Positions 5,350 through 63,622 of a stretch of 64,000 nucleotides of DNA are shown in pieces. The DNA comes from Vairimorpha necatrix (lineage: Eukaryota). Numbering within the stretch: the stretch's first letter is position 1; each line of letters begins with the position of its first letter. The stretch covers positions 248,001-312,000 of the forward strand of contig CP142726.1 of assembly GCA_036630325.1 (NCBI GenBank), read 5' to 3'. The position numbers were made by a program, and so were the translations under genes. The notes beneath the pieces are model-generated. The model was not told the DNA's origin. It saw nothing but the letters and a program-made list of their open reading frames with translations, and searched no databases.

Positions 5350-5363
5350 AATGCATTAGACAT
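1503..5363 (-). CDS. Single-ORF Gag-Pol polyprotein (PR-RT-RH-IN). True start probably the GGGT-ATG inside the 5' LTR (MKDNKK, ~5189)
   Basis: Protease LIDTGA; RT IDYRRLN, LDLESGYHQ, MPFGL, YLDD; RNase H TDAS, EKECLA, TDHQAL; integrase HHCC, IDMVGP, SDRG, VERTN, GPY. PR-RT-RH-IN order is Gypsy-type. Confidence 0.96.
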   Translation of the reverse strand: MSNAFVKEQFSSGPKIALETREYYSISILFLFPIMFFGGKILYIFPPTNIKEIHAQKGMKDNKKYGLKHSSRSVGKPTDHNGGNDDEDKSDDLDNILSQMKKLCLQNRWLEFTGEDLNKAEDFLSQFREIEDVYSQAKTLDIAKSKLKGKALKWFKAFEGEEIVDYETFKSHFNKKYLKKKLVEDVTDLFMHLYVEGPKESDILSYAYDLKRCAKGSIEHFERSKIAIGRNSPEILKEAISETKEWIELLELVEEKDFLINKYLKKRKPFYKKPQNEVTCQEMKEYKTVPKKAVQTNSSFILKIGRVAKNDNFSDVRARINFFSGREKIAALIDTGAEINCINKKKAQLLGLNPRKETLNIVGVGGTVKSEGIVEFSVKEPKTKKSRIVEAHVVANLPEDLIIGLADVLNLNLLKILDKMRNALITKSVCTTTPEVLETQTVDVGEEDTAQEDKEKFNKLISKYPAVFYNNDLKSSLDIEHAIEITNDFSEVRNIQYRRSPEQNEIIESKIQEFLSKGFIENSESDYTSPVVLVKKPNGDIRFCIDYRRLNKITKKMIYPIPLVEETIEELQGASIFTVLDLESGYHQIRIREKDRYLTAFRSRTGTFQWVRMPFGLVNAPFTFQKIMNSILSPYLHKFVQVYLDDIMIYSRSIEEHVKHIEAVFEILNKLKLKVNHKKCKIGKNTVNFLGYTINKNGVSIPLEQQTKCLNLKIPATLKETRAFIGFINYFRKFIRNYTDIMAPIYDCLKKGKFKFSEEAKQSVGKIKEIITSSPVLKLPDFNKRFILYTDASNLYIGATLMQRYEETEMPVYFISRKLNTAEINYTVTEKECLAIIWSISQFRIYLTNTFTIRTDHQALKWLLSYKESTGRLMRWILTLENYSYDIEYIKGKENIIADGLTRFVHVVNYEDELELSAESRKEMILKCHEECGHGSIYPTYALVLDKTKWKGMYADIKQELEKCQVCLKFNLKRTPKQHHRIRLKDPFSLIGIDMVGPLPKSENGKTYLIVATDYLTRWCEAKAVRNKSAKTVAKFIFEEIVCRHGPPNELLSDRGLEFLNNTVKELCGIFKIKKSFTSAYHPQCNGTVERTNQSLVAKLAKMINGRWKDWDEYLELALYAYRISPRKKTGFSPFELLYGRKPLLWEHPERELLCLEDNFLIFERLKQTRDTMLQAEREAREREIVEGKEFALQVGDVVLRRKPPISIRNKLDSKFEGPYTITKVGRKGAYEIINPNNDVFKVNGKDLKKMDFELETWEPIKKGGVSRNSSPVVLRLPWRPENTIL

Positions 5364-6134: not shown

Positions 6135-7115
6135 TCAAATACATCTGTACTTGTTTTTAAGGCGGTTGTTAGTAGCTTCTTTAATAACTTCTTCATTATT
6201 TTGAGCCTTCTCTTCTTTATCAACGCTTTGATTATAATTATTGCCTCCATTTGAACATTCTTTCTTCGCTGAAACTTCACAAGTTTCTTCCCGTAATTTC
6301 TGTCTTGATAAATCTCTTGATCTTAGAAATTTTTTTTTATTTTCGTTTTGGTCAAGTTTTTCAGTTGTAATTTGTTCATTATTTTTTGGATTTTTCCAAT
6401 CAAAAATTTCATCTTCTTCAAATTGTTTACTAAACAAGCGGCAACGTCTTTGCATTCGTCCTCTTTTATTATTTTTTGGAATAAGTTTATTAGAAACATT
6501 TATATCGTTTTCCTTATTGTAATATAAATCTTTTAAGATTTCTGTCGGATTATAGAATTTAAATTTTGCTATATTTTCATGATACGATGAGGAAATAAGT
6601 GGATACAAGTAATTCTCATTGTAATCATAGGAATCGCAAAATTCTAGTTTATAAAATTCTCTCTCTTTATGTAACACAATATCTTTACTTCTTGAATAAG
6701 TGTTTGCTGTTAGTAAATCCAAAGTTGTTACTCTATCAATACAGATTTTATTTTTATCATATGGAATCTTAGCCATTAGTAAACATTCACCACTTTTGAA
6801 TAAATCTGCTCTGGCTTTATCTTTTAGATTTAAAATTGAATGAAGATTCAAGAGATCATATAAAGTTCTTTTCTCTTCTGAAGTTAATGGCTTAAAAAAA
6901 TTTTGCATATAACTTTTACCTAGATCCGAACTTTTATCGTCGATATTTACAGAATCTTTTACGCAATCTTCAGCTGTTAAATCTGATATGAAATAAATCG
7001 CAGCCGGATCGGTTTGTTTTATATTTATGTAAATTTCGACATTATTTTCATGTGGAACTATAAATGCATCGTAAGTACTAAGTATTGCAGTAATATAAAA
7101 AATAAGAAATATCAT
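6135..7115 (-). CDS. Hypothetical secreted-type protein (326 aa), lineage-specific family
   Basis: Intact ORF, CCCC directly before the ATG, hydrophobic N-terminus MIFLIFYITAILST. Clear paralog at 22986-23594 (shared KICIDRVTT.DLLTANTYSRSK, DSYDYNENY). Confidence 0.85.
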   Translation of the reverse strand: MIFLIFYITAILSTYDAFIVPHENNVEIYINIKQTDPAAIYFISDLTAEDCVKDSVNIDDKSSDLGKSYMQNFFKPLTSEEKRTLYDLLNLHSILNLKDKARADLFKSGECLLMAKIPYDKNKICIDRVTTLDLLTANTYSRSKDIVLHKEREFYKLEFCDSYDYNENYLYPLISSSYHENIAKFKFYNPTEILKDLYYNKENDINVSNKLIPKNNKRGRMQRRCRLFSKQFEEDEIFDWKNPKNNEQITTEKLDQNENKKKFLRSRDLSRQKLREETCEVSAKKECSNGGNNYNQSVDKEEKAQNNEEVIKEATNNRLKNKYRCI

Positions 7116-22609: not shown

Positions 22610-22985
22610 ACCTCATCTATATGGAATTGTTTATTATAAATGCATAAAATTAAAATTAGCTTTTCAAAATATAATTTATTAATTACACTAGTACTTAAAT
22701 GTTTATGGGGTCTTTAATTCATTATAATGACTTGATTGACGTTCTGATATGCATTATTACTTTATTTTTATATCCTTTATCACAAATTTTCCAGATGTTC
22801 AATCTTGAAAAACACTTTTAAAAAAAACTTCCTTTTTATTCTGGCCAAACTTTTAAGTTGTATTTAAATATTTCTTCTTTAATTTTCTTATTGATAAATA
22901 AAGCAATAAAAATTGCTAATAAAGGGTGCTATGAAAATAGAATTTCTTTTTATTATTATTTTAGCACTATGCAATTCATTAGTAT

Positions 22986-23594
22986 TTAATTTCTTTCCAT
23001 ATTAAAATATGAATTAAGTAAAATTTCAGTTAAATTTTGAGAATTAAAAATTGCTAAATTTTTTTGATACGACGATGAAAGAAGTGGATACGAGTAATTC
23101 TCATTATAATCATAAGAATCGGCAAATTCTAGCTTATAAAAATCTTTCTTCTTTTGAACCTCAATTACTTTACTTCTTGAATAGGTGTTTGCTGTTAATA
23201 AATCCACTGTCGTCACTCTATCAATACAAATTTTATTTTTGATATATGGAATTTTAACCATTAGTAAAAGTTTACTTCTTTTAAATAAATCTACTTTGGC
23301 TTTATCTTTCATCTTAAACATTAAGTAAAAATTCAAGATATCATATAAGTCGTCTTTCTCTTCTAAAGTCAATGGCTTAAAAAAATAATTAATATGGGGC
23401 TTCTCTAGATCTGATCTTTTAATATTAATTGAATCTTTGACACATTCTTCAACTGTATAATCCGATATAAAATAAATTGCAGGTTGATCTTTTTGTTTTA
23501 TATTCATGTAAATTTCGATATTGTTCTCATATGAAACTATAAATATATTGTAGGTAGTAAGTATTGCAGTAATATAAAAAATAAAAAATTTCAT
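22986..23594 (-). CDS. C-terminally truncated paralog of 6135-7115 (possibly a pseudogene)
   Basis: CCCC-ATG at 23594 (MKFFIFYITAILTT). Collinear with the 326-aa protein until an early stop after ~202 aa. Confidence 0.75.
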   Translation of the reverse strand: MKFFIFYITAILTTYNIFIVSYENNIEIYMNIKQKDQPAIYFISDYTVEECVKDSINIKRSDLEKPHINYFFKPLTLEEKDDLYDILNFYLMFKMKDKAKVDLFKRSKLLLMVKIPYIKNKICIDRVTTVDLLTANTYSRSKVIEVQKKKDFYKLEFADSYDYNENYSYPLLSSSYQKNLAIFNSQNLTEILLNSYFNMERN

Positions 23595-30864: not shown

Positions 30865-31639
30865 TTTTTTAATTCGCAACTAATATGTAGATCAATCCCT
30901 TACACGGGAACCAAATTATTGATATGTGGTCCTTGTCCAACTGTTTCTGCAAATTGTTACATACTAAAACACCGCCTTTTAACTTTACAGTACAACAAGC
31001 TTCGCCAAATCCATTATACTTTGACTCAAGAGAAGATTTTTTATTTGTACAACAAATCGCGTCTTTTGACCTTTTGCGAATATACTTACGTACATGGTTT
31101 TCTATAGACCAATGATATACCTTTTCGTACAAGCTAAAAGATTACAACAATCCTTGGCAATACACACACCTTTTACGTCGCCGCAATAATAGGCTGTCTT
31201 TTATTTTGAATGAGCTGAACCAACGTTGTATACCAGTTTCGGCAACTGAGGGCATAAGTATCCAGTATGAAAGTTCCACGAGAGCTTTTATTACTCTACT
31301 TGTATAATCAATTAGTTGGATCGAGGATACCGTTCTAATGTGCTATACCCTTATCTCATTCAGCCCGTACACATAAGATGCGCTTATGAACTTATATGTC
31401 GCCTCTCTTATGATTCTTTTCTCGGCCTTTAGGTGCGTTTCTGCACTAGATGCTAATCTCATTATGTATGACGCACACAAGTTTTAATGTATCAACTTAA
31501 CGTTAATGTTGACATTTTTATGGTATAAGTTGTTCTACCCTCATCATAGAAAGTAGAAACAATGGGGGTACTCCTAGAAATCGAACTCATCTATTGCTCG
31601 ATGAAAGCATCGCCTTCGACCACTGCGCTTTAATACAAC
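30865..31639 (-). mobile_element. tRNA-headed SINE-like family 1, diverged copy D
   Basis: Minus-strand head AGCGCAGTGGTCGAAGGCG...GAGTTCGATTTC; collinear with copies A/B along the full length (CATCATAGAAAGTAGAAACAAT, CACACAAGTTT, AATCGCGTC, CCCTTACA). Confidence 0.75.
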
Positions 31640-36972: not shown

Positions 36973-37757
36973 TTTTTTTCTTGCAAATAAGAGGTAGGGA
37001 GAAACCTTACATAGGAACCAGAGGGATTTGGGTGTGATCCTCTTTCAACTGGTACTGTGAGATTCTAACTGACTAAAACTCCCCCCACACAACTTGCTGG
37101 TGCAGTAAGCTCCGCCGTATCCCTTGGACTTGCGCTCCAGGAGAACACTTTCCATTTATACCTCGAATCGCGTCAGAGTGACCTCACGGCGGATATACTT
37201 AACGGGCATGGTTATCTATAACCCGAGGAGAGACATCATCGTACTGACTCAAAGGTCCCTACAATCATCCGTATTGCACACACGGCTCCTTACACGACCA
37301 CACCCCAGCCCGACGTTTTTATTGGGCTGCTTTGACCACCAGTCTTCCACTAGTTTCGGCCACCGTGTTACAAAATCTTATAGGATAGGGTCCACGAGAC
37401 CTTCTATTGCCCTACTTCGTCTGGTCTCTTAGTTAGCATTAGGATCCCACTCTAGAGTGCACCAGCCATGGGCTCCAACTAGGCCGTACTCATCAGATAC
37501 TTTTATGTATCATTAAGTCACCAAGGGGTGATACTGCTTTTTGGCTTTGAGATGCGTTTCTACACTAGATGCTAATCCCTTGTGGCTGGACACACACAAG
37601 TTTCAATGAATCAACTTAATGATTATCGTGGACATTTTTATCATCTGAGTTGTTCCAACTGCATCATAGAAAGTAGAAACAATTTTGTGCCCCTGGGAAT
37701 CGAACCCAGCCATTGCTCAATGGAAGCATTGCATTCTACCACTGTGCTAAGGGCACC
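36973..37757 (-). mobile_element. tRNA-headed SINE-like family 1, copy A
   Basis: Head 37687-37757 with A-box TAGCACAGTGG, B-box GGTTCGATTCC and acceptor-like GTGCCC/GGGCAC pairing; A-run tail; full-length similarity to 56901-57687. Confidence 0.88.
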
Positions 37758-40700
37758 TATTTGGACAAGAAGAATGTGTTGTCGCAATGTGCCAGAACAC
37801 CAGAGGATGTTCTAGGTGCGTTTGTGATCAACGGATTACCAGAGAATATAGGAAATATGATCATGTTAAATTGTCCAGAAAGGTTGTCGTGGTCGTACAT
37901 ATATAAATTTGTAGTGGGCTGCAGTGGCAGAAGATTTCAGCTGAGGGTACTTCGCCCAATGTCTACGAAGTTGATGCAGTTTAGAATACAAAATTTGTGT
38001 CTAAATTAGGTAATAAAGGGACGCCAGAGACGGGCAAGGTAAGATGTTTTTATTGCGGTAAATTAGGTCATATAAAGAGACAAAGTTTTAAATTCCAGAG
38101 AAAATTGCATTTATTATGGAATCTGGCACGGAGAGGAATGAGGAAAAGGAAGCGGAAGATAGTTTCAATAAAAAAAATTTGTTTTTTTGACAGCCATGAA
38201 AGCTGATGTGTTTTCATAAGACTCGTTCCCGATAGTTCATATAAAAGGGGAGAAATAGTTATAAAGCGTTGTTAATTCGGGTTCTGCGGTAAATGTAATT
38301 TGTAGAGGATTAATTCCGGAAATTGTTATTTTATGGATACTAATGTGGTTTTAAAGTCGGCAGGAGAAGATTAAATGGGTGTTTTAGAAAATGTTAGGTT
38401 GTCCTTCTGGTGGAATGATACAGAGCTTACTGAAGAATTTATTGTTTTTACAAAAAAAATTTATGTTATAATTTTGGGATGACCGTTTTTGAGAAGAAAC
38501 AAACTGACATTATTATGGAAGGAGGGATTTTAGGTCTTCAGTATTGATAAGCGTATAAATATGTTAGGAGAACATACAATTGACACAGGAAATGCTGCTC
38601 GAGTTGTGACGCCGATATGTAGGAATGGTATGTCATTAGAGGATGAAATTTAAGAGTATTTGAACAAGGGCTTTTAAACCCTCTAAGAGTCTATGGCGGA
38701 GTCCGTTGGTAATAATTAAGAAGAAAGAAGAAGGTTGGAGAATTTGTATAGATTATAGGAGATTAAACGATGTTACATGTCAAACGCTTTATCCATGCCA
38801 AGGGTCGATGAAATAGATCAGTTGAACGGAGCTAAGATTTTCAAAAAGTTGGATGCTTTATCGGGGTATCATCAAATAGAATGAGTGAGAAAGATTTGGA
38901 GAAGACGGCCTTTGGATCCAGAGATGGTCTATTTAAGTTTTTAAGAGTGCCATTTGGATTTAAATTGGGCCGGCAACATTCCAGCGAGCAATGAATAATG
39001 TATTAAGAGAATTTATTGGTAAATGTGTGATTGTGTACATAAATGATATTTTAATTTACATTTAGAATATGAAGAGCATGTAGTGCATTTAAAGCAAGTG
39101 TTAAGAGATTAGATGAGTTCGGTTTGAATTTAATGCGTCAAAATGTGAATACAGAAAATAAGAGCTAAAGATTGTGGGAGTAACAGTGGGAAGAATGGTA
39201 TTAGAATTAATGATGATAGGATAAGCAAATTGTAGATATGCGTCTGCCCACGTCAAGGAAAGATTTAGAATCGTTTTTGGGATTGATTAATTAATGCGTC
39301 GGTTTTTGAGAAATGTATTTGAGCACAGAGTATTTATATGGTTTACTGAAGAAGGAAAATGAAGGGAAGTTTACGACGATCGAGTATGATGAGAAATACA
39401 AGAGATCAATAGAAGCATTTAAGTTAGAAGTTGGGGAAACAATATGGATGGCGTTAACCAGAAGGAGAGGGAATTCATTTTATACACGGACGCTTCTGAC
39501 GTAGGGAGAGAGGCGATTTTATCACAGATACAGGATGGAGAAGAGAAAATTGTATTAGGTTTTTTAGTAAGGTTCATTCAAAACTGGAGAGGAACTATTC
39601 TGCCCTAGAAAAGAATTGTTGGCTGTAATTAGGGCATTAACAGATTTAAGACCGTATTTAATTGGGATAAGTTTGAGCTACGAACGAATCATAAAGCATC
39701 GATTCGGTTGTTTTCGTCAAAAATATGAAGTGAAGATTAGCAAGATGGTCATTATTTCCACAAGAACATGATTTTGCAACAAAACAGATTAAATGTGAAA
39801 AAATTAGCGGATGTATTAAGTAGAACTGCTTGTGTTGATGCAGTATTAGAGAATAAGGAAGTGTCAGTAAAAGAGGTTCTTAAGAAACATGGGATGTTAG
39901 CACATGGTTCAGCAGAGGAAGTTTTTATGGCTTAAAGGTGATCGAAGAGAGATATCAGAAGTAAAGGTTAGAGTTTTAATTAAAAATTGTAGGGGTTTTC
40001 AACAGATGGTCGTTCTAAAGTTAAAAAAAACAAATAATAGTGTTCAATCATCAGGTCCTTTTAAATTCCGGGAGATTGATATGGTGGGTCCATTGATTTG
40101 ATTTAGAAGGAAACAAGTTTATTTTAACAATGAAAGATCATTGGACAAAGATGGCTGAGATGTAAGGGTGAAGTCAAAAGATATGGAAGTATTGTTGAAG
40201 CAGTTGAACGATCCATATTGAAAAAATATGGCATAGCGGAGAAGATTTTGTTGGATAACGGTAAGGAGTTCAAGAATAGAATGACGGAGGAACTGGCCAA
40301 TACGTATGGATTTAAATGGGTTTTTACATTCCTTATTCTCCGAGAAATACAAGTTTGGTAGAGAGATTTAATGGGATGTTTATTATGAAGTTGAGGAAAT
40401 TGTGTAGATTCGGTTCGTTAGATTGGGGAGAGCAGCTAGAAAAAACAAGACTAGAATATTTGAATTCATATCATAGGATTATAAAATGTACACCATTGGA
40501 AAAAAGCATGATGGAACAGAAAGATAACTTGCCGGTGCATTCGAAACGCGGAAAATTATAGCTAGAGAAAGAAGGTTTATTATTGGTGGTCTAAACTTAA
40601 GATGGAAGATTTTGTTATGTTTAGTGATAAATCAGTAAGTAGGGATAAATTAGATCCAAAATATACTCATAAAGGGGAAATTCTAGAGAAAATGTTAGAG

Positions 40701-40859
40701 TCAGCTAGACTGTAATTAAACGATGGGAGAGTGGTTGTTTCAAATGTAAGACAGTTAGGATTTTTTTGAAGAGTGAAAGTGGTATGTACCTTTCTGTAAC
40801 ATTTATTCCTTATTATTTGTACTCCCCTTCCCCGAATTTATAATAAATGTTTATAGACA
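37758..40859 (+). mobile_element. Heavily degenerate Ty3/Gypsy element lacking its 5' end
   Basis: Knuckle CFYCGKLGH; protease remnant NSGSAVN; RT CIDYRRLN, LDALSGYHQ, VPFG; RNase H TDAS; integrase IDMVGP, DNGKEF, VERFN. Candidate short 3' LTR at 40785-40859. Confidence 0.85.
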
Positions 40860-42097
40860 ATAGTTACTCCAAAAATTTTCATCTTTCGCAAGAAGCATTT
40901 TCTTCGAAATTAATTCAAAAAGAATTTTTTGACATTACCCCTTCGCAAGCGAGCAATTTTATTGAATAGATTCTGGAGATATTAAATCTTACTATTTTTG
41001 TACAAAGAATTTAGGATTGTGTTCAATATATCAAATGCTCAATAAAAATTGTATCTACTTTGCATAATTTTTTTTTGGTGTAAAATTTTCGAGTTTAAAA
41101 TTCGAGTATGCAATGCCAAATATAAATCATTTTTAGCACACCATCTTTTCGATGTTTTTTCTTCTTTGTTGTATCATTAAGTTCTTCATCAGTCTGTATG
41201 TCGCATTGAAATGTTTATTTTGCATCCCTCTTTGGATGTATTTTTTTGGCATTATACTTATACTAAACGAAAATAAAAGGTTTTTTTCAACCCTACAACT
41301 TTTTGCTATTTTTTTGGCTTATAAATTATTATAATCACTTTGAACTATGCACCTATTTTTTGTTTTAATATAAAACACTGCATAATCGAACAGGTGAAGA
41401 AGCGGGAGTTATTTAATAAAACTATACGCTTGCATTCAAAAAAATAAAATTTAAAACTTTTTGAAATTCTCATGATAGAACTCTGAGAATATTGGAGTTT
41501 TGAAATTGAAAAAAGAAAATAAATATAACTAAAAACGGAGTAGTATGCGACCCCAATTTGAAATTTGACAAAACAGCACAAATTAAATAATTTCTCTACC
41601 AAAAGAATTGATACCGCTATTTTGTTTGTATACAAGCTGTTGAGCAACGAATGAATAAAAATATTCAGTCAGTGTAAACAATTTATACGTTATAAACTTT
41701 GTTTAAATGTTAGTTTAATATTTTAAAGTTATAACTTAACAAAAAACTTTTGCAGGATTTTGCTTTTTATATAGACTTTAAATTCTTTTATTATTTTATA
41801 TCATTTATATGATTTCTAATCTACATAACTATATATTTTTTTCATATCCTTCTTTCACTATATATTTTCCTAAATCAGAATGTGGTACGAGTTGCCTTCC
41901 AGACTGCTCGGAGGGATAAAAATATTCGTAATTAATAAATCAGTCAAAAGTCCCTTTGATACTTGTTTTCATTGTCGGTGTCGGGGTTAAAAATAATTTT
42001 TTTTTATAGTTTCCCCCTGTCAACTTATTTAAGAAAATAGGGAAATTTATGAAAAAATAGAAATTACCATATTTGATGTGTCAAAGCATTTCGAAAT

Positions 42098-42836
42098 AGT
42101 GCACTTAGCCAAGTGGTCGAAGGTGATGCTTCCATTTATAATTTAGGTTCAAATCCCAGGGGCTATAAAATTGGTTCTAACTTTTTATGATGCAGTGAAA
42201 ATAACTCAGATGAGTAAAAATGTCCACGTTGATCATGTAGTTGAATCGATGAAACTTGTGTGTGTTCAGTACGGGGGAGGGGGTAGCATCTAGCGTAGAA
42301 ACGAACACAATGCTGAAAAACAGTATCATCCTTGTGGTGACTTAATGATACATAAAAGTATCTAATAGGTACGGCGTAGTTAACCCCCAGTTGATGCACT
42401 CTGAGTGATCCTAGAGCTAACTAAGAGACTATACGAAGTAGGGCAATAGAAGGTCTCGTGGACCCTATCCTATAAGATTCTGTAACACGGTGGCCGATGC
42501 CAGTGGAAAACTAATGTTCAACACAACCCAATAAAAGATGCGGGCTAATGATATGGGCGCGTAAGGAGCCGAGTGTGCGATACAGATAATTGTATGAGCC
42601 ATTGGGTCAGTACGATAATATTCCTCCTCGGGTTAAAGATGACCAAGCCCGTGTGTATATCCGCTTTGGGGCACTCTGGATGCGAATTGAAGTATTAATG
42701 GAAATTTTTTTTGGAGCAAAGTCCATAAATACGGCGGGCTTGTTGCAACGGTATGTTTTATAAAGGGAGTTTTGCGAGTAAAAATCATAAAGTACAGTGG
42801 ATAAAGATCACACATGACCCCGCTTTTGATCCTTAT
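42098..42836 (+). mobile_element. tRNA-headed SINE-like family 1, copy C
   Basis: Head TAGCCAAGTGGTCGAAGG...GGTTCAAATCCCAGGGG; long blocks identical to the reverse complement of copies A/B (GGTGACTTAATGATACATAAAAGTATCT, GTAGGGCAATAGAAGGTCTC). Confidence 0.85.
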
Positions 42837-47769: not shown

Positions 47770-48144
47770 CTTTTTAGAGTTTTATACATTTTATCTCTGT
47801 CTTTTAATTTTCTCATCATAATGCAGTTTCGTTAGTCTGTGTTGCTTTCTAGTCTTCTCTTTTTTAAATTACAACCTAGAATTTTCTAATTATTAAATTA
47901 TTTTTGCCCTAAATATTGCGATCTAAAGGATAATATTGTGCTTATGTTATTTTTATTTTCAGGATAAATATTCTATATACAAAACATGTATAAGTTTTAA
48001 ATAAAAGTTATCGGTTTTCTCTTCGAGGCTGGTCTTTGGCCGCCGACTCAATGTTGTTTTCAATAGTAAATTGTTTATTGCTCCTTTCGAGCCTCCATAT
48101 TGCATCTCCTTCCTTCATTTTATCCTCATGAGGTATATTTATTT

Positions 48145-49344
48145 AAAATTTTTACTTTACATCCCCTAATATATAAATTCGATTTTATAAAAACAACCCC
48201 TTTATAAAAAAACCGAAAAGATAAAAAAAATACGAAGAGAAAATAAAGAATTTAATAAGTACGTAAAATAGTAAAAGTAAGTTCTAATTTGGCCATATTA
48301 TATGTAAAACACGATAATAAATCAAATTTGATATTTATTTTATTGAATTGTCCTTAAATTATTGTCTTAATACATATAAATATATTTATTTTCTCGCTTC
48401 ATTAAAATTAGATTTATGCGCCGATAATACAGTTTTTATCATCTTTATGTTGTTTTAAACAGATTAAAGGTTTGTTTGTATTACTGCAATCTAAATAGCA
48501 ATAACATCCCAAGATAATTTGCAGAAAGTACGATATCTTAGCAAATGAATTTGGCCCATTGTACAAGTGCAAAGTTCAAATAAAACCATACGTCATGACA
48601 TGGGACGAAGATGTGACAAAATACCATAGCGACTATGTTAATGCCTTCGGCCTATCGACTAGTGCCGAAGCTTACATCCAAATGAGAATTATAAAGAACA
48701 CAAGAGAGCATCTTTTTTGAACATAGGCAGGGCTAGTCAAGCGAGGATCTGGAACCAAGAACATAGTAGAGCTATCTGGAGGGTGGTGTAGCCAGGTAGA
48801 GTGTGCGGCAGTGGAGGTAAATTAAAGAAGAAAACAAGCACATTTATAGCTTCAAAGAAAATTTATTGTTTATATTGTTTTTTACTATATATAAGAATTA
48901 GTATATTTGTTAATTTATTGGTTTTTAGACAAATGAAGAAGTAAAATTTCATATTTATGTTCTATAAAACATTCATATATATATATATTAACAAAATTGT
49001 AAACAATAAAAGATGAACCACCATGAGAATAGTTTAATTATTCATAAAAATATGTATTTTTTGCGTATTTTTATTAAAAACATTATAACTTAGTTATATT
49101 ATTATGCAAGTTATATTTATTAATATTATAATTTTATACACATAAATGTGTATATAGTAAGTGATTGGATCAAGAATGTGCAAAACAATAATTAAATAAT
49201 TTGTTTATTCTTTGCTATTATGGTTTTTTATAATGTTCTGGAGTTTTTTACTTTTGTTCTGCACGCTTTAAATTATCAAAATCAGAGATATTTTTAATAA
49301 TTTGTATTTATATATGTAGAGGAGGGTTGTAGATTTAAAGTTCC
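48145..49344. mobile_element. Non-autonomous TIR element, inverted paralog of 56159-57790, containing a non-LTR fragment
   Basis: Shared ends (CTTTACATCCCC; ATATATGTAG...GTTCC) and internal blocks (TAAGTTCTAATTTG.CCATATTA, GTTAATTTATTGGTTTTTAGA) with the reverse complement of 56159-57790. Confidence 0.7.
48482..48870 (+). mobile_element. 5'-truncated non-LTR retrotransposon 3' fragment
   Basis: Translates RKYDILANEF...YKCKVQIKPYVMTWDEDVTKYH; absent from the paralogous TIR element. Confidence 0.75.
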
Positions 49345-52321: not shown

Positions 52322-54172
52322 ATGGAAAAAGAAACTAAAACACTGGAATTTGAAAATTTATATCTTGATGTACCAAATTTCGATCCCAATGGACATATCT
52401 CTTACACTAGAGTTTTTAAATCTTTATCTGGGAAAATTGAATCTGGGAAACTTACAGCTGTACTTGGTTCTTGTGGTTGTGGTAAAACTCATTTTCTTAG
52501 AATGCTTGTTGGTGATATCAATGAAGAATCAAAAACATTTGGTAAGATAATATACAATGGCGAAGAAAGAGACCCAGAAGAATGGAAATCAAAGATTTCA
52601 TATGTTCCACAGGATGATATATTTTATCCTCACTTGACGATTTATGATCATATGAAATATTATATGTCACTTGGGGAAGCAAGATATCGTAAATTTGACG
52701 AACGTAAAGCCGACAAGATACTTGAAGGATGCGCCATATTGCATTTAAAACATAGTCTCGTTGGTGCACTTTCGGGAGGTGAACGCAAGCGAGCTTTAAT
52801 CTCTTTTTCTATGATTAATGATCCAGAAATTTTAATTTTAGACGAACCTACAACTGGGATAGATTCAAATGCAGCAGTAGAAATCATCCACACACTTAAA
52901 AAGTATGCGCAGGACTATAATTGTATGGTTATATCTGCAATACACCAACCTAGTGCCGGTCTTTTCAGCCACTTTGATGATTTAATTGTATTAGTGAAAT
53001 TAGGAGTATTTTATATTGGACCATATAAACAATTAGAATCTTTTTTTGTCGAAAATGGGATCTCTATGGAATCTGACTTATCTTTGCCAGAATTACTGTT
53101 TGTCATTTTACTTGAATATTCCGAATTTCCCGAAGCTACTAAATATAAATCGAATGTCAAGAAAATAATAGAAAAAAATGAGCAATCATGTAGAAGTGAA
53201 AATACCGCAGAAATATGCAATAATTACAAGCCCATTGATTTTAAACACAAATTTGCTGATAGCTGGAAGGTAATGAAACATTCCTTTAATACTACTTATA
53301 ACAAAAACAAATCATATTTTGTTCTTGTCTTAATGTCGTTTTGGACAATCTTATTAATTTTAGCGGAGCCAATTATGCATTTCTGCATAGTCCCTCGATA
53401 TAATCATTTGGAAATTCATGAAGAATTGAAAAAATGTTCTTTTGATCAAATATTCAGTTTAAGTTTTGGTATAGTCAATCATTTATATAGTTTATCTGAT
53501 TATGTCTGGTCACTTTATTCATACACAGGTGTATGGAAGTACAACCATTATTTTGCTCCCGAATATTTGAACGGTAAATACACATATGGTACGTATTTTA
53601 TGGCAATGTTCTACTATTGTCTAATCAGAAATTTTATGTTCTTTTTTTCTAAGTTCTGTTTTTATCTTTTATTTTATAAGACTTTTTTGTTCAATCCACT
53701 AATATTTTTAATTTTTGCTATTCCTACTATTATTAATATTTTTTTATACACTTGTATGTCTATTGCAGTTGAATATGATGCGATCTATATCTGGGTGCCT
53801 ATGCAATTAGCACAAGTTGGACATAAAATGTATGACCACAACTATAATAATAATGTTGCGTATATCCATTCAATCATCCCAAACTTCAATTTTATACTTT
53901 TTTTAAGGATGAGATGTTTTGGATTATTGGAAAAATTTAAAAATATGTTAGCAATTTCTGAATTTCTGAGTAAAACAATTAATAATGAAATTATCAACTA
54001 CTCATATGAAGAAGGTGCAGCAAATACTATTTTATACAATACTTTTGGTAAATGGGCAGATTTTATTACAGTTTTCACTATGTTTGGCTCTTCTTTGTTG
54101 ATGATTGGCGCTGTAACAGTACTTTATGAAATTAACAGAATTCCTAATATGAGATTTAAATTATCAAAATAA
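52322..54172 (+). CDS. ABCG (White-family) half ABC transporter, 616 aa
   Basis: Walker A GSCGCGKT, Q-loop YVPQDD, signature LSGGERKR, Walker B ILILDEPTTG, H-loop IHQP, then hydrophobic TM segments (NBD-TMD order). CCCC before the ATG. Confidence 0.95.
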   Translation: MEKETKTLEFENLYLDVPNFDPNGHISYTRVFKSLSGKIESGKLTAVLGSCGCGKTHFLRMLVGDINEESKTFGKIIYNGEERDPEEWKSKISYVPQDDIFYPHLTIYDHMKYYMSLGEARYRKFDERKADKILEGCAILHLKHSLVGALSGGERKRALISFSMINDPEILILDEPTTGIDSNAAVEIIHTLKKYAQDYNCMVISAIHQPSAGLFSHFDDLIVLVKLGVFYIGPYKQLESFFVENGISMESDLSLPELLFVILLEYSEFPEATKYKSNVKKIIEKNEQSCRSENTAEICNNYKPIDFKHKFADSWKVMKHSFNTTYNKNKSYFVLVLMSFWTILLILAEPIMHFCIVPRYNHLEIHEELKKCSFDQIFSLSFGIVNHLYSLSDYVWSLYSYTGVWKYNHYFAPEYLNGKYTYGTYFMAMFYYCLIRNFMFFFSKFCFYLLFYKTFLFNPLIFLIFAIPTIINIFLYTCMSIAVEYDAIYIWVPMQLAQVGHKMYDHNYNNNVAYIHSIIPNFNFILFLRMRCFGLLEKFKNMLAISEFLSKTINNEIINYSYEEGAANTILYNTFGKWADFITVFTMFGSSLLMIGAVTVLYEINRIPNMRFKLSK

Positions 54173-56158
54173 ATAATTTACACTAACCTGTAAAGTTTCT
54201 TATTTTTTTGACCCCGTTTCGTAGTTTTGAGATTCCCGAACTAATTGATTTGGGTTGTTTTGTAAAACATTGAAATGATTTATGCGGGATTCTACCACAT
54301 AATTGTCACATTTTTTTATTTTTTATTTATTTCGATATTTAGCAAACATGAATTTTTTTAGGAATGAAAAATATTCAAAGAAGGGCACGTTAAAATAAAT
54401 GAACAATAATAATTACTACTAAAATAAAAAAAAGCATGGGAATCACAAAGAAAATTTCTAACATCAAAAAATAAACCTACATTCTCTCCCTATTGGAGCA
54501 ATATTTTCGTTTTGGCTCCCTCCTAGAAGGTATCACAGAAGCGTAAACAAAGACAGGAAGAAGATATTAAAATAAAAGTTTCGAAGATTTTGGTATTTGT
54601 TATGATGGTAAAATTGAAAATAAGGGAAGGAAATTATTCAAATTAAGTCTACCAGTAGATTTAAAAAGATAAAACATAAGAAACAGTTTTTAGAGGGAAA
54701 AACAAAACAAGATAAAAGAAAAAAAAAATTAATTAATTAGAAGAATTGGAAGGAAAATTTACAGAAGTCTTAGTAAAAGACGAAAGGAAATAAAAGTTTT
54801 TACAAGGGGAAAATGTTCTATTGATACAAAACAAGGAGTAAATGTAGTTTTGGGGGACAAAAATATTTTCATGATCTAGTGTAAAGTTAGAAAAGTATAT
54901 TAATTTATTAGAAAGTAAAGGTATTATCAGAAGGACAAGAGTGAGTGGAGAAGCCTAATAGGGGCCATAGAACCCCCGAATAGAAAAGTGAGATCGGTAA
55001 GCAATAAATGGCTTTAAATAAACTGGTGAAATGGAAATGTACGAATTGCCACTAATTAGAGACATTATTAGAGCACCACAAGGTTCTAAAGTATATAGGA
55101 TTATAGACTTAAAGTAAGGATGCTTTTATATATAAATTGAAGAACATAACAAATATAAGGCAGAGTTTGAGATAAATGGTAGAGTATTCAATGGAATAGT
55201 ATGGAAATGGGATTTAGAAATATCCATATTATGCAAAGATTGATGGACGCAGTTTTAGATAAATTTAGAGGCATGGCTGTTGAGGTGTACATGGATGATA
55301 TTATTATTTAAGCAAGAGATAATGATATAAACGATAATATTTCACAACATGTAATTCGGAAATTCAAAGATCGTGAATTTAAAGTAAACATAAAGAAGAC
55401 ACAATACAAATTAGGAGAAGTGAAACTACTTGATATAACAATTTACTGAGAAGACATCAAACCAAACAAAAATCAAGCAAGAGACAAAAGAACACAAAAG
55501 GCCTAATAACATAAAAAAGCTTAGAATATTTTTAGGGTTATCGGGCTGGTTTAAAGATTTTATTCCTCATTGAAATTATCGGACAGCACGACTTACAGAA
55601 GCACTGAAAAAAAGATGGTAAAAAGGAAGGGCCCGAAGCTATGGAGAAAGCCTTTATGGACATTAAAGAGAATTCAAGGGGCATGAAAAACTATAAATTG
55701 TAGCCAGTTAGGTAATTTTTGGAGTGCAAACGGACGCATGCGATACGTTAATTGGAGCAAAACTAATGCAAGAAGACGAGAAACAAGGAAGGTGGATACC
55801 GATACAATATGCATCAAAAATGTTAATATCAACAGAAAAAAGATATATAATCAGTGAAAGAGATGATGGCAGTGTTATTTGGAATAAATAAATTCGAGGC
55901 GGATTTACGCGAAATTTCATTTAATGACAGATCATATTACTGACCGAGCTTAGAAACAACCCGTCTTTATAGTAATAACAGAATTAATAGATATATAGAA
56001 CATATACAAGTGTTCGACTTTACCATTGCATAAGTAAAAGGACAAATGATGATGGATGTAGATGCTCTTAGTTGAGAATTTGAAAATAACGAGTGAAAGA
56101 AAAAAGCGAAAGAAAACTACAGACGAAAAAAAACAGATGAAAGGAAAAGAAATAAAGC

Positions 56159-57790
56159 GGAACATTTCCGCTTTACACACCTTCCCTTACATATAAAAAT
56201 ACTAATTTTTAAAAAAAATCCCTGATTTTGGAATTCGAAGCGGACAGAACGAAAAGGAGAAAATCTAAAAAATAAATATAACAAAACAATATAATAACTG
56301 AAAATAAACAAATTATATTTTTATTTTTTTTTTGTTTTTTTATTTTATTATCTACTTGATTAAATCTGTACTTTTATGCATTTATCTGGATAATAATAAG
56401 AAATATTACAAAATATATATAATGAATATGAACATAACTTAATTATAATGTTATAAATTAAAAATAATAAAAACATATATTTATATTAATTATGTAATAA
56501 ATATCACATCATTTTATCTTTTATAGTTTACAATTTATGTGTAATATAATACATATGAATGTTTTAAAAAATACGAAATTTTAATTCTTCAGTCGTCTCT
56601 AAAAACCAATAAATTAACAAAACTACTAATATAATATACATAGTAAAAAATAATAACAATCAAACCTAAAATCTGTTTTAAACAACATATAACACATGAA
56701 AATATTATTTTAAGCATTAAAATCAAATTCCAATGACATAAGAATTAAATTTGTTTTTATGTATTTATACTTCTAAACAAACACAGATCAGAAAAAGCAA
56801 TTATTGAATTTGTTTTGTTTTATATTTTACATTTAATATGGTCAAATTAGAACTTATTAAAACTATTTTTTTGTACTTTATAAATTATTTATGTTCTCCT
56901 TTTTTTTTCTTGCAAGTAAGAGGTAGGGAACCCCCTTACATAGGGACCAGAGGGATTTGGGTGTGATCCTCATTTAACTAGTACTGTGAGATTCTTACTC
57001 ACTAAAACTTCCTCCATACAACTTGCCGGTGCAGCAAGCTCCGCCGTATCCATTGGACTTTGGCTCCAGGAGATACTTTCCATTTATACCTCAAATCGCG
57101 TCCAGAGTGACCTCACAGCGGATATACTTAACGGGCATGGTTATCTATAACCCGAGGAGAGAAATCATCGTACTGACTCAAAGGTCCCTACAATCATCTG
57201 TATTGCACACACGGCTCCTTACACGACCACATCCCCAGCCCGGCATTTTTATTGGACTGCGTTGACCACCAGTCTCCCACTAGTTACGGCCACCGTGTTA
57301 CAGAATCTTATAGGACAGGAACCAAGAGACCTTCTATTGCCCTACTCTGTCTAGTCTCTTAGTTAGCTCTAGGATCCAACTCTAGAGTGCACCAGCCATG
57401 GGCACCAACTAGGCCGTACCCATTAGATACTTTTATGTATCATTAAGTCACCAAAGGGTGATACTGCTTTTTGGCCTTGAGATGCGTTTATACACTACAG
57501 CTAATCCCCTTGTGGCTGGACACACACAAGTTTCAATGAATCAACTTAATGATTATCGTGGACATTTTTATCATCTGAGTTGTTCCAACTGCATCATAGA
57601 AAGTAGAAACAATTTTGTGCCCCTGGGAATCGAACCCAGCCATTGCTCAATGGAAGCATTGCATTCTACCACTGTGCTAAGGGCACCTTTTATTTTCTCC
57701 TCCTTTTTTTACATTCTGGTTTTACAAAAAAGAAATATATTTTCAAAAATTGGTATTTATATATGTAGGGGGATGTAAAGTGGAAAGTGC
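56159..57790. mobile_element. Non-autonomous TIR element with 9-bp TSD (MULE-type), carrying SINE-like copy B
   Basis: TSD AAATAAAGC (56150-56158, 57791-57799); imperfect TIRs (TTTCC(G/A)CTTTACA...TACATATA). Removing the insertion restores the host frame MKGKEIKHMMKREGK. Confidence 0.8.
56901..57687 (-). mobile_element. tRNA-headed SINE-like family 1, copy B (with TSD)
   Basis: tRNA-like head 57617-57687; A-run tail; 13-bp TSD TTTAT(G/T)TTCTCCT at 56888-56900 and 57689-57701; paralogous empty site at 48235-48247. Confidence 0.9.
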
Positions 57791-58135
57791 AAATAAAGCA
57801 CATGATGAAAAGAGAGGGGAAAACCTCTGGAAGTTCTCAACCGGAAAACTTAAAGAAATACTACACAAAGAACAAGAGAAACAGAAATTTGTAGGGTTAT
57901 GAGGGACTAAATCATCGAGGAGTTAAGGGAACACATTATAAGATTAAACAAAGATGGTTTGGCCAGATATAAAGGACCAGAAAACTACAACAATATAAAT
58001 CTGTAAAGTATGTAACATTAGAATCAGAAAACCGATCAGAGGATGCAATTTTGTAACAACACTTAAGAAATTAAGGAAAGTAGCTTTAGAAATAATGATA
58101 TTGGTAAAAAAGAAAGATACATGCTAATAGGAGTA

Positions 58136-59667
58136 CCCGGGGTTTTCGTCCCGGTTTTAGGGGTTAAAAAAATTAAAAAATTAAAAAATTAAAAAAACGA
58201 ACTTTTTTATTTTTTTATTTTTTACCCCTATGACCGGGACAAAAAGGATAATCAAAAGCAACAGAAATATGGATCAAATTATAGATGAAAATCTATATAT
58301 TTACGAGAAAAAAAGAATCAACAAAACTACTATAAAGTGGCGATGCATTGTACGAAGCTGTAATGCCAAAGCCACTAGTAGTATTGTTTACGTCAATAAT
58401 CTCGAATCCTTTACTATTTCTTCGGCTCATAATCATGAACCAAATCCTGAACTGGTCTGTAAGAAGAATAAAATAGATAAAATGAAACGGGAAATTATCT
58501 CTGCAAAGATTCTCCTAGAAACATTTTTTCTGCCTTAAGAGGAGCTGGGGAAGAAATAATCGCCGCAATGGGCCCTATTGAGCCCATTACAAGGATATTA
58601 AGGAATGTTCGGATGAATTCCTTTAATCCAAAACCATACGCCAACCAAAAATTGGGGTTATGTGCTGATTTATTAATCAGTCATATAGGCGAACAATGGT
58701 ATCGATATGGGCCTGAAAATTACGGGAGTGACGAACCCAATGACAGTATAATTATTTTTTATACAGATTCGGCCATGGGAAAATTGGCTCTATATGACAT
58801 GTGGGCGATGGATGGGACCTTTACGGTGGTTCCAATTCCCTATTACCAACTTTACGCAATTTGTTTTATCCGTGATGCGCATGTATTCCCGATAATATTT
58901 GCAATTTTAAAAGATAAAAGTTTTGAAACCTATTGTTTTTTGTTTCAAATGTTAAAGAAAAGGTTTCCGGAGCTCAACCCAAGGTTAAAAACTGATTTTG
59001 AATATGCTGCGATAAGAGCATTTTCTAGAGTTTTCCCGGATTGTCAAATTTCAGGTTGTCTTTTTCATTCAGCTCAGGCTATTGATAGGCGTGTTAAAAG
59101 TTCAGGACTTTCTTCTGTTTACACATGTTCACCTATGATGAAAAGGGTTGTTTTGTCTCTTACGGCACTTGCATATGTTGAATATGACGATATATTGTCT
59201 ACTTTTTTGGAACTAAAACAAGACAGAAATTTTCCGGAATGCTTGACTGAATTATATTGTTATTTTTTTACAAATTATATTGATTTAGGATGCCGTTTTC
59301 CGCCGAATTTGTGGCACACGCGAAATAATATGGATATAGATTTTCCAAGAACGAATAATGCTATTGAAGGGTGGCATAATACCTTTAAAAACACATTCTG
59401 TACTAGTCGATACAGTTTTTATCTATTAGTGAGCAAATTAAAGGATGAAGAAGATATAGTTGAATCAAGATAATACAACAAACAGTTTTAAATCATGTTT
59501 TTGAAAATAAACAAAAATACATTGATAAAGAGATTGGTTTGCTGTTTTTTTAAATAAAACTGTGGATGAAGGGTTTGGTACAGATTTTGTCTTTGAAATT
59601 TTTGAAATAATAAAGTTTTATTTTTATTTATTTTTTTTTTCGGAAGTTTCGTCCCGGTGGTAGGGTT
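58136..59667 (+). mobile_element. MULE/Mutator transposon with frameshifted transposase (58230-~59560)
   Basis: FLYWCH-like WRC...C...HNH; MULE motifs MDGTF, DFE.A, GCLFH, PRTNNAIEGWH; TTTCGTCCCGG motif near both ends. Interrupts a Gypsy integrase; exact ends uncertain. Confidence 0.88.
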
Positions 59668-60983
59668 GAGATTTTACGAGTAGAGTATGGGGCGCAAAGA
59701 CAGGAAAAGAGCTGTGATGCTGTTTTTATAAAATTATAAAAAAATGAACAAAGGAAGATGGATGCCCAGATGAATAAATTACGGGTAAAGGTAAAGAATA
59801 TGTTATTGATTAATTTGTAACTTAGTGTAAAGAAAACGGAAAGTAGGTCTAGAAGCTCATAGGAGCAATGGAAGTATTGAACGATGTATAGAACAATAAG
59901 GGAAACAATGATCAAACAAAAAGAAGGAACCACAGAGGAAAAACTAGAACAAGCCGTACAAACTTATAATAACACTCTACACACAGCGATAAAACGTACA
60001 CCAATGGAAGCACGGAAGGACCAAGGAGAAGAAGTCTTTATGAAACAGCGAAAAGGGCGCGTATGCAAGTAGGTTCAAAAAAAGGCATAGAGAAAAAATT
60101 GAAGTAGATCAAGTTGTAAGAATCGCAAAAAAGAAAATTTGGGTACGAAGATGAAAAGTATGAAAGAAAGATTTACAAGTGTTGGTAAAATAATGCAAAT
60201 GTGTGAGTAAAATCTATTATGGTGCTTCTCCGTTTTGCTGCCCCCAAAAAAATGGGGCAGCAAAAATAAAAAAATATATTTAATAAAATCAATTAGAACA
60301 TCCAATTTCCTCATTCTTCAATACATTATTTAAAATTTTTTTTCTAAAAGTAAATTCTTCGAGCCAAGATTCGATATTCACACGTTTTACTTCGCGCTGT
60401 TTAGTCATTTCAGATTTCATACCAGACCAAAAATTCTTTATATTATTAGTATGAAAACCTTCTTCATTAGTAAATCCTATTGAATGATTTACAATAATGT
60501 GTTTGAGTTTTAGATTCGCTGCTACACCGGGATAACTAGGATGGCCATCCGAAATAAGAACTAATTTCGGCAAGACTATATCTCCTATTATCTTTGTTAA
60601 AGTATTTATCTTTCGATCCGGAACTTGTACTATACAAAATTTTTTTCTATCTACAGCTTCTATTAACCCTTAAATCCGTACATTATCTTTAATTCCATCA
60701 TCTGTTCTAGATGGAAATATAATAGTTCCCCTTCTACACAGTACAGTTTCATTAACTTAACTTGAACTTCCGATCCACCGATTTTGCAATCGGTTTTCAA
60801 TTTCTTTCTAATATATTCCTTCAATATAAGCTTTATTTGTAAAATAGTGTCATTTGACATACACGTTAAACATTTAATTAATCTATAATTGCTGTTACAA
60901 AGGACCAAGAACACAACAAAATTATAAATTTCAAATGATAATTTAATGCCAGGTAAAAAGCTGTTTTTTTGCCCTGCATTCTT

Positions 60984-62758
60984 GGCAAGCCGATTTTTCG
61001 GCCTTAGGCCGAAAAATCGGTCTTTCGGCCTAAAAAAAATTATTTTAAAATACCCCAATGGAAAATTTATCCCACGAAGAACTGTGTGAAGTTCGTTCCA
61101 AAAGGGGAGGAAAAAAGATATTATATGCAGGACATGCGTATAATTTCAGATATAACGGAAAAGAAAAAATAATATGGAGATGTAGAGCAGAAAACTGCAC
61201 TTCAAAACTTCATACAAATTTAGATTGTAGTTTTTTAAGCGTTACCCCCCACAACCACGAGCCAGACTTCGACAAAAATAAATTCGAATATTCCTACGGT
61301 CAAATCTTAAAACGGGCAGAGGAAACTGCCGAGACGTCAAGAATTATAATTTTTGACGCGTTGAAAGAATATTCTAATGAAGCTTTAGAAAAACACCTGA
61401 TATCTTTAGTATTGGGGATAGAATTAAGAGAATGCGAAACGGGAGGCATAGTTACTCAACTCCCGATAAAACTGATATTCCGAATTCAATTAAATATTTG
61501 CCTACAGGCGAATTATTTGTGCAATTTGATTCTGGGATAGAAGATAAGGAAAGAGTCGTGATTCTTTGCACGCTAGAAAATTTAATACACCTTGAGAATA
61601 CTAAAACTATTTTAATGGATGGTACTTTCAAGTTTGCTCCATCTAAGTTCAAGCAATTCTATACTCTAGTCGCGTATATCAATATTAAGTACATTCCTTT
61701 GGTATTTATACTAATGAAAAAAAAAAATGAGGCATCATATAAGAAAATATGTGATTTTATAGTGGAAAAAGCACCAAACTTTAACCCTAAATGTTTTAAT
61801 TTAGATTTCGAATTAGCACCAAGAAAAGCTTTTAAACAGCTTTTCCTGCCGCAGTTTTCTATGGGTGCAATTTTCATTTTTCCCAGATTATTTATAGGAA
61901 AGTGCAAGAGTTGAAAATGAGCACGTTGTATCGAAATGATATCGAATTTAGAATGAATATAAGAAGGATTTTAGCGTTAAGTTTTGTTAAACCTATTGAG
62001 GTTCTAAATTATTTTTGTCTGATTAAAGAAAAGCTTATGTCAAGGAGTAATAGAAAGAGATATGAAACAATTTTAGGATTTGTATTTAAAAATTATATTG
62101 ACATTGACGCAGAAGAGATTTTATTTTGGAATGTTTATGAACGAGTATTAAATAAGTTACCAAGAACTACGAATAGTTTAGAAGGATTTCATAGATCGCT
62201 TGATAATCTTTTTACTGTAGCAAATCCAGATTTGGGTGTTTTTGGAGAAAAGTAACATGAGGAGCAATTGAAAAGCAGGCAAAAAATTCTACGCGCTTAT
62301 TACAAGTCTTTTAAAGTAAATGACAAGTGTAAAAAATATATAAGAGAAAAATATATATATGATATTGTATCCAATTTGAAACCATAGACGCGCTTGATTA
62401 TTTATTTCAAATTTCATCTACTCTTGAATACCCTTTTACATTATTAAACTAATATTAGTTATTTGGTTTAGTTTTATTGTTTTTTTATATTATTTATTTA
62501 TTTTTTTTTATTTATTTATTTATTTATTTTTATTTATTTATTTATTTATTTTTTTTTTTTATTTATTTATTTATTTATTTTTTTTATTTTTTTATTTTTT
62601 TTATTTTTTTTATTTTTTTTATTTTTTTTATTTTTTTATTTTTTTATTTTTTTATTTTTTTATTTTTTTATTTTTTTATTTTTTTATTTTTTTATTTTTT
62701 TATTTTTTTTAGGCCGAAAGACCGATTTTTCGGCCTAAGGCCGAAAAATCGGTCAGCC
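60984..62758 (+). mobile_element. MULE/Mutator transposon with frameshifted transposase (61058-~62400)
   Basis: ~55-bp TIRs containing CCGATTTTTCGGCCTTAGGCCGAAAAATCGG; FLYWCH-like WRC...HNH; MDGTFK, LDFE.A, PRTTNSLEGFH. Confidence 0.92.
62480..62710 (+). repeat. (TTTA)n grading into (T6-8 A)n simple repeat inside the right arm of the MULE
   Basis: Directly visible. Confidence 0.95.
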
Positions 62759-63622
62759 CCAAGAACACAACAAAATTATAAATTTCAAATGATAATTTAA
62801 TGCCAGGTAAAAAGCTGTTTTTTTGCCCTGCATTCTTGTCTCATACACCTATAAACTAATCTTTCCTTTCCCCTTTCCAATAATATTGTAAGCTTTGCAA
62901 CAACACGATCACAAGAACCACATCGTCTAATCAAATTAATAATTCCAGTCTTTATCATGTAGTAATTACATGAGGCAAGACTGGAAAACAAAGGATGTCT
63001 ATAATTATAAAAGTTTTTTTTTGTCATTTTTGGGTCTTTTTTAAAAAAAATAAAAATTATTAATTTTTGCTTTTCTCCGTTTTGCTGCCCCATTTTTTTG
63101 GGGGCAGCAAAACGGAGAAGCGCCGCAAATATATATTCAACTAGGTTGTGACCTGCAGATACTTTTTGTTTGATAATTTAATACATGAACAAGTCGTTTT
63201 TCGCTTTTGGGTGCGTCTTAATACGTTATGTTTATCCTCAAATGGTGAATCACACAAGTTTCATCTGATCAATTTTATGATTTTTGTGTACATGTTCAGC
63301 ATCTAATTCGTTTCGAATGCAATATGGAAAGTAGAAATATTATAATGTTGTCGGTATTCAGACCCAGTTATTGTCAATGGAAGCTCATAACAGACCACTG
63401 CGATAAGGAAATCTAGCATTATACATCGAAGAAGTTTCTAGTAAAAACAATCAAAAGGCGCTAATCAATTTATAGGTCAGTTAATTTCATAAAAGGATGC
63501 GAGGATGTAGTAAACTATAAAAATATAAAGTATATCAAAAATACATTAAAATGAAGAAAATTGATGGATAAAAAATCCAAATAAAATTTATATAAAATAA
63601 AAAAAAAACTTTAGAAAAAAAC

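Follow-up and report, generated by a model that had tools for sequence, protein, structure and literature searches.

A long, tRNA-headed SINE-like repeat family in a transposon-rich stretch of the Vairimorpha necatrix genome

The window analyzed here, a stretch of 64,000 bases of Vairimorpha necatrix DNA, has a GC content of 30.6% and is rich in remains of mobile elements, with at least three Ty3/gypsy pol regions, Merlin/IS1595-type and MULE transposases, and FLYWCH fingers. Its sole clear cellular gene encodes a half transporter of the ABCG type, whose nearest named relative is a V. necatrix protein at 77% identity; at least eight V. necatrix paralogs are found among the matches to this transporter, suggesting a lineage-specific expansion. 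This nearest relative places the host among the microsporidia of the Nosema/Vairimorpha group. The features surrounding the repeat family described below are as follows.

1341-5363: seemingly intact Ty3/gypsy element with an ORF of 1286 aa covering gag, protease, RT, RNase H and integrase
1341-1567 and 5123-5349: two 227-bp direct repeats of this element, 100% identical
6135-7115 and 22959-23594, both minus strand: repeated ORF family, 326 aa, 64% amino-acid identity between copies
38682-39887: decayed gypsy RT
52322-54172, plus strand: intron-less ABCG-type half transporter
60289-60669: fragment of a Merlin-type transposase
60905-60984 and 62759-62838: two 80-nt direct repeats, 100% identical
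61049-62255: FLYWCH and MULE ORFs
62467-62711: 240-bp (TTTATTTT)n array
63052-63138: 85-nt near-perfect palindrome

The identical 227-bp repeats suggest that the Ty3/gypsy element at 1341-5363 was inserted recently; its ORF begins 14 nt upstream of the 5' repeat, and the first ~80 residues are encoded by the LTR. The repeated ORF family has no Pfam match, and a search of 5.8 billion proteins returned matches only from the same contig. Between 38000 and 41000 there is a strong GC skew (+0.3 to +0.46), like that of the intact gypsy pol at 10-13 kb, with only the decayed RT trace and no long ORF in this region. The two 80-nt direct repeats lie around the FLYWCH and MULE ORFs and enclose the (TTTATTTT)n array as well.

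Dispersed among these elements are five copies of a repeat composed of a tRNA-like head and a longer body.

30865-31639, minus strand: copy A, 775 bp, the oldest full-length copy, 66-67% identical to B and D (alignment, nhmmer)
36973-37757, minus strand: copy B, full length, 785 nt (alignment, BLAST, Rfam, ARAGORN, nhmmer)
42098-42836, plus strand: copy C, older, 739 bp with a decayed 3' end, 78-79% identical to B and D (alignment, nhmmer)
56901-57687, minus strand: copy D, full length, 787 nt with its terminal A-run counted (alignment; nhmmer E 3e-269)
63136-63408, minus strand: copy E, old and truncated, keeping the head and the first ~215 nt of body (BLAST, sequence; nhmmer E 1.4e-19)

An earlier sequence-only reading of this DNA had listed copies A to D, and its coordinates are right: the four copies align end to end. 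Searching the 64-kb window by nhmmer with a family HMM built from these four gave exactly five matches, the fifth being copy E (model positions 6-286), which was absent from the earlier list. Together the family makes up 3359 of the 64,000 bases (~5%). Copies B and C lie on either side of the skewed region at 38000-41000, head to head, with no LTR pair between them. BLAST similarity of copy C to B and D stops near 42813, and copy E stops where the 85-nt palindrome that cuts it off starts. A 45-nt piece of this palindrome recurs with 98% identity at 60221-60265, near the Merlin-type transposase fragment, and the palindrome may be a terminus of a MITE or DNA transposon.

The copies differ widely in age. 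B and D are 93% identical, with a Kimura two-parameter (K2P) distance of 0.07, compared to 78-79% and 0.26 for C against either of them, and to 60-67% and 0.45-0.58 for A against the other copies. In flank comparisons within the window, the five copies show no relatedness of their surroundings to one another. The 3' flanks of B, C and D seemed alike at first sight, with scores of 24 and 19 against a null 99th percentile of 20, but we rejected this likeness as low-complexity because each flank has equally good AT-rich matches elsewhere in the window.

The body of ~700 nt is non-coding. No conserved reading frame is found in it, since the longest stop-free stretches reach only 36-107 codons and shift in both frame and place between B and D; in encoding no protein, the family is like a SINE. 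As had been proposed, the body is richer in GC than its surroundings (0.46 in B, 0.455 in D, 0.42 in C and 0.37 in A, against 0.306 for the whole window), and its GC content drops with the age of the copy. By BLAST, the body matches nothing in the rest of the window outside the family copies. Against Rfam it has no match either, even at permissive thresholds, and everything except the head stays far under the gathering scores. A search for conserved RNA structure in the body gave none that is convincing: the RNAalifold covariation term is -2.88 kcal/mol over four sequences, and the z-score of single-sequence folding is -2.3 against 20 shuffles.

The ends of the element bear on how it moves. 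It starts with GGTG and finishes in an A-run instead of having TG...CA ends, and no terminal inverted or direct repeats are detected, the best scores of 5-6 lying under the null median of 6.5. These ends and scores, together with the ~22-bp target duplication of copy D described below, are not those of an LTR, a solo LTR or a TIR transposon (MITE). It could still be argued that the repeat spreads at the DNA level, as a deletion derivative of a DNA transposon or Helitron, as a solo LTR or as a piece of a segmental duplication; the window is crowded with Ty3/gypsy, Merlin and MULE remains, and a target site duplication (TSD) is detected in just one of the four full-length copies. Against this stand the absence of terminal repeats and of TG...CA ends, the unrelated flanks, and a body without counterparts elsewhere in the window. 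Nor is there a primer-binding site in the window complementary to the head: a probe of 18 nt from the 3' end of the head matches only two heads, and the gypsy element at 1341-5349 has a different sequence after its LTR. We regard movement at the DNA level as very unlikely, and the insertion of copy D adds to the case against it.

57689-57710, minus strand: 5' TSD copy of D, 22 nt, starting with A7 (local alignment of flanks)
56888-56906, minus strand: 3' TSD copy of D, 19 nt, differing from the 5' copy by a 3-nt gap and one substitution
48223-48247, plus strand: target present once in an empty site (paralog 48138-48351)

That copy D was inserted here is proven, and its duplication measures ~22 bp. 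The alignment of its two flanks scores 13.5, a value reached by none of 500 random pairs of window segments. Moreover, both flanks of D align to the paralog, the 5' one over 48138-48247 and the 3' one over 48223-48351; the two alignments overlap by 25 nt, and this overlap is the target, present once there and twice at D. A second empty site comes from a public sequencing run (X1, see below), in which a contig joins 56872 to 57689, skipping the element and carrying the target sequence once. Since this contig has a second gap relative to the flank of D, it represents a paralog rather than an allele. Both empty sites lack the head and the body alike, indicating that the two were inserted as one unit, and the family exists as a mobile unit of head and body.

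The sequence in which D is nested is itself an element. It is AT-rich, ~0.85 kb long (56160-56900 plus 57688-57830; paralog at 48138-49300), has imperfect terminal inverted repeats of ~25 nt and interrupts a decayed gypsy pol gene. Contigs from runs X1 and X2 join ~56158 to 57830-57899 without this AT-rich element, and it is also repeated, as the depth of its flanks in X1 is ~670-1,800 compared to ~40-80 further right.

The duplication at D implies a cut of the opposite strand between a T-run and an A. A long TSD together with a cut at a T-run/A junction is the signature of target-primed reverse transcription by L1-type elements, while integrases and DDE transposases leave duplications far shorter than 22 bp. 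Thus, both the length of the duplication and the cut site at D fit target-primed reverse transcription of the LINE type and not an integrase or DDE transposase; by this general rule, 22 bp is too long for the DNA-level movement considered above. Alu and B2, the mammalian poly(A)-dependent SINEs mobilized by L1-type LINEs, resemble copy D in having a target at a T-run/A junction, a long and variable duplication that starts with A, and an A-rich 3' end. The family described here is about three times longer than Alu and B2, and differs from them in that a true A-tail is not demonstrated.

The 3' end calls for this caution. Copies A, B and D do finish in an A-run, of 6, 7 and 9 A respectively, as had been noticed before. 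However, the duplication at D starts with A7, so at most ~2 of its nine 3' A's can belong to the tail of the element; the run at D is mostly duplicated target, and what is demonstrated is the presence of the runs and not a true poly(A) tail. The long TSD typical of Pol III SINEs calls for the same caution. Tabulated over the four full-length copies, a duplication is seen at D (~22 bp), but the flank alignments of A, B and C score within the null of random pairs; the retroposition signature of a TSD plus empty sites is therefore seen in one of the four. As copy B is young, its missing TSD requires a secondary rearrangement of its 5' flank, and none could be shown there. Displacement of the TSDs of A and B by later upstream insertions was considered and rejected, the best matches being weak and A-rich. 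A Ty3-like element targeting the head of B was also discarded, as only the decayed gypsy RT lies upstream and no element end is found at the head.

We then have to account for the head, whose features in the two young copies are as follows.

57616-57687, minus strand: head of D, matching Rfam RF00005 with 32.4 bits (gathering score 29) and called tRNA-Met(CAT) by ARAGORN
37686-37757, minus strand: head of B, identical to the head of D
57669-57679, minus strand: A-box-like motif TAGCACAGTGG in D, element positions 9-19
57626-57636, minus strand: B-box-like motif GGTTCGATTCC in D, element positions 52-62

The ~71-nt tRNA-like head with an A-box and a B-box, already recognized in the sequence-only reading, is confirmed in B and D by Rfam and ARAGORN and is decayed in A and C. 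The two motifs, which in both young copies, B and D, we take to be exact matches to the Pol III A-box and B-box consensus, are 43 nt apart from start to start. The internal Pol III promoter within a small-RNA-derived head that characterizes SINEs is thus present here at the level of sequence. With the Rfam tRNA model, the first 71 nt of both B and D score 3.4 bits over the threshold, and A, C and E give no match; ARAGORN assigns both B and D heads to tRNA-Met(CAT). In the Rfam alignment the B/D head forms a full cloverleaf with mismatches in the D and anticodon stems and a T stem of 4 bp. The claim that there is no regular anticodon arm was overstated, for an arm of 5 bp with one mismatch and a loop of 7 nt is present, with C at position 33, where U is expected, and U at 37.

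These tRNA calls in B and D could be taken to mean that the heads are working tRNA-Met genes and that the body is a separate element targeting the 3' side of tRNA genes, as some retroelements of Dictyostelium and yeast do target tRNA genes. We give this explanation almost no weight. It is contradicted by the empty sites of D, which are without head as well as without body. A working tRNA has U33, a purine at 37 and a T stem of 5 bp, whereas the B/D head combines a non-canonical anticodon loop with a 4-bp T stem and passes the Rfam threshold by 3.4 bits; it shows neither the canonical cloverleaf nor the conservation independent of neighbors that a functional tRNA gene would have. Furthermore, decay in A, C and E has gone about as far in the head as in the body: identity between A and B is 52/72 in the head and 453/688 in the body, and between C and D it is 53/69 and 520/661. 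This joint divergence in old copies indicates that head and body are not a working tRNA gene and an independent neighboring element. No CCA follows the acceptor stem in the head sequence, which argues against its origin from a mature tRNA used as a primer. Judged by these features, the head is a tRNA-derived sequence and not a credible working tRNA.

Between the young copies the pattern is different from that of the old ones. The heads of B and D are identical (72/72) while the bodies match at 650/704, that is, 54 of 704 aligned sites differ, and at the rate of the body, a head would stay unchanged with a probability of 0.003. An identical head beside a differing body is as expected if master copies are selected for their promoter, and these alignments are most simply explained if B and D descend from different master lineages, with selection probably maintaining the head in them.

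To see how far the family has spread, we used assembled contigs of four public sequencing runs aligned to 55500-59000 with a likeness of at least 80%. Summed contig depth rises at 56903/56904 and drops past 57722. In run X1, labeled organism A, this depth is 11,782-105,810 inside the element and 1,524 and 3,467 in the neighboring bins, and in run X2, labeled organism B, it is 249-727 inside and 7.7 and 11.8 in the neighboring bins; summed depths of this kind are not copy numbers. Up to 26 distinct contigs cover one site in X1 (510 contigs over the 3.5-kb stretch), and up to 16 do so in X2 (384 contigs). In three X1 contigs similarity breaks off exactly at 57687, where the D head has its first base, and the junction of head and body is bridged by contigs in X1, X2 and X3. 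The last of these runs, a bat gut metagenome, has contigs over 56989-57641, and of these the longer records 15 and 21 differ in only 5 and 11 letters. The family is thereby shown to have many copies in at least two labeled organisms. A deeper 3' half in X1, as a hint of 5'-truncated copies or of a tail shared with a LINE, was not used, being absent in X2 and resting on depth, which is not copy number. Exact-pattern scans gave 0 matches and 1 match in JGI metagenome contigs and 0 matches in contigs of prokaryote genomes, and the sole JGI match (L001) is a 23-nt chance match in a contig of 63% GC.

We conclude, at a probability of roughly 0.78, that the family is a tRNA-derived, SINE-like retroposon that would be transcribed by Pol III from its head and copied by a LINE into A/T-rich targets, with Pol III transcription and the LINE partner being the inferred parts of this reading. 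Pol III would start from the internal promoter in the tRNA-derived head, and the transcript would extend across the GC-richer body, poor in T-runs, as far as the A-rich 3' end. A non-LTR (LINE) reverse transcriptase/endonuclease would nick an A/T-rich target, and cDNA synthesis would be primed on the A-rich 3' end of the RNA, leaving a long target-site duplication. The sequence-only reading had arrived at a similar picture, of which the tRNA-headed, non-coding and non-autonomous retroposon stands, through the TSD and empty sites of D, the unrelated flanks, the joint divergence of head and body, and the multiplicity of copies.

The partner fragments it placed in the window are not supported. 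Fragments of non-LTR elements had been claimed there, but among 38 window ORFs compared with Pfam there is no non-LTR domain, and every RT match is joined to an RNase H or integrase of the Ty3/gypsy type; the other matches are to Merlin/IS1595, MULE, FLYWCH and ABC transporter domains. By BLAST, no window sequence shares the 3' end of the element. Partner elements are plausible in the clade, as 4-15 non-LTR families per species are given for Nosema genomes in Table 1 of PMC4202319.

The polymerase is the other inferred part. An RNA made by Pol II, or by read-through from a neighboring gene, could be the one retroposed, with the tRNA-like 5' end acting as a module for processing or stability. 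LINE-mediated copying of Pol II transcripts is established for processed pseudogenes and leaves the same long duplication and A-rich end, and 785 nt is long for a Pol III product. In addition, a TTTT near position 680 is kept in all four full-length copies, so that, should T4 be a stop signal for microsporidian Pol III, few transcripts would reach full length. Copy B is correctly described as having no T-run longer than 4, but this depletion is not significant: shuffles of its composition contain on average 0.62 runs of at least five T, and none at all in 52% of cases, making the scarcity of T-runs statistically uninformative. What makes a Pol II origin unlikely in our view is the 5' end. Pol III SINE transcripts begin at the first base of the head, and the copies start exactly there, as seen in the alignment and in the loose contig ends at 57687; the A- and B-boxes are exact in the young copies, and an unchanged head next to a body with 54 of 704 differing sites points to promoter-like selection. 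We therefore retain transcription by Pol III from the head as the probable source of the RNA.

As a probable tRNA-derived retroposon, the family can be placed next to known SINEs. In the SINEBase definition (PMC3531059), a SINE is shorter than 700 bp; the full-length copies of 775-787 bp exceed this limit by ~85 bp, and what they have in common with a SINE as defined there is being a non-autonomous retroposon with an internal Pol III promoter, here predicted from sequence. Because the length is over the limit and the Pol III transcription and the LINE partner are putative, we describe the family as SINE-like and not as a SINE in the strict sense. The fungal tRNA-derived SINEs described in the relevant part of PMC5063351, namely MgSINE of Magnaporthe (472 bp), Foxy of Fusarium oxysporum and AfuSINE2 of Aspergillus fumigatus, are similar in their ~70-nt tRNA head with a Pol III promoter, non-coding body, dispersed copies and TSDs, whereas the family here has a longer body and a microsporidian host, the comparison being one of descriptions. 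The TSD of AfuSINE2 is 4-14 bp according to the same account, in contrast to ~22 bp at copy D, the only copy in which it is measurable. Longer fungal elements are also called SINEs there: Egr1 (700 bp) and EGH24/egh1 (900 bp) of Erysiphe graminis and mgsr1 (800 bp) of Magnaporthe, which, again by description, are like the present family in being non-coding and, at 700-900 bp, occur in tens to hundreds of copies.

No described SINE family in Microsporidia was found in the full-text literature, and a prior annotation in Repbase or Dfam is possible. Two surveys of microsporidian transposons (PMC4202319 and PMC7313128) report LINEs, LTR elements and DNA transposons, and the word SINE is absent from their main texts; zero SINEs were found by RepeatMasker in another microsporidian species (PMC11585130), and a 2026 comparative study (PMC13702014) has a SINE class in its repeat figure that the available part of its text does not discuss. 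We consider the family a long version of a well-known kind of element that is new to the phylum in the literature searched, unless Repbase or Dfam already holds it. A bolder claim would be that this is the first characterized SINE-type family of Microsporidia, still active and with hundreds of copies in at least two related parasites, whose body (46% GC compared to 31% in the genome) is not a LINE tail but a module acquired elsewhere, for example from an arthropod host, or kept by selection in master copies. As a whole we hold this claim to be rather improbable.

Genomes of microsporidia span the range from extreme compactness to a heavy load of transposons. Their mobile DNA has been surveyed by protein similarity or by RepeatModeler classes, under which a non-coding retroposon of the Pol III type would fall among the unknown repeats. 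The accepted view of how SINEs work is unchanged by the family described here. If the proposed reading is true, it would add a long-bodied case to the debate on SINE length limits and could provide insertion-polymorphism markers for strain typing. It would also mean that LINE reverse-transcription machinery and a permissive Pol III system act on non-coding RNAs in Nosematidae.
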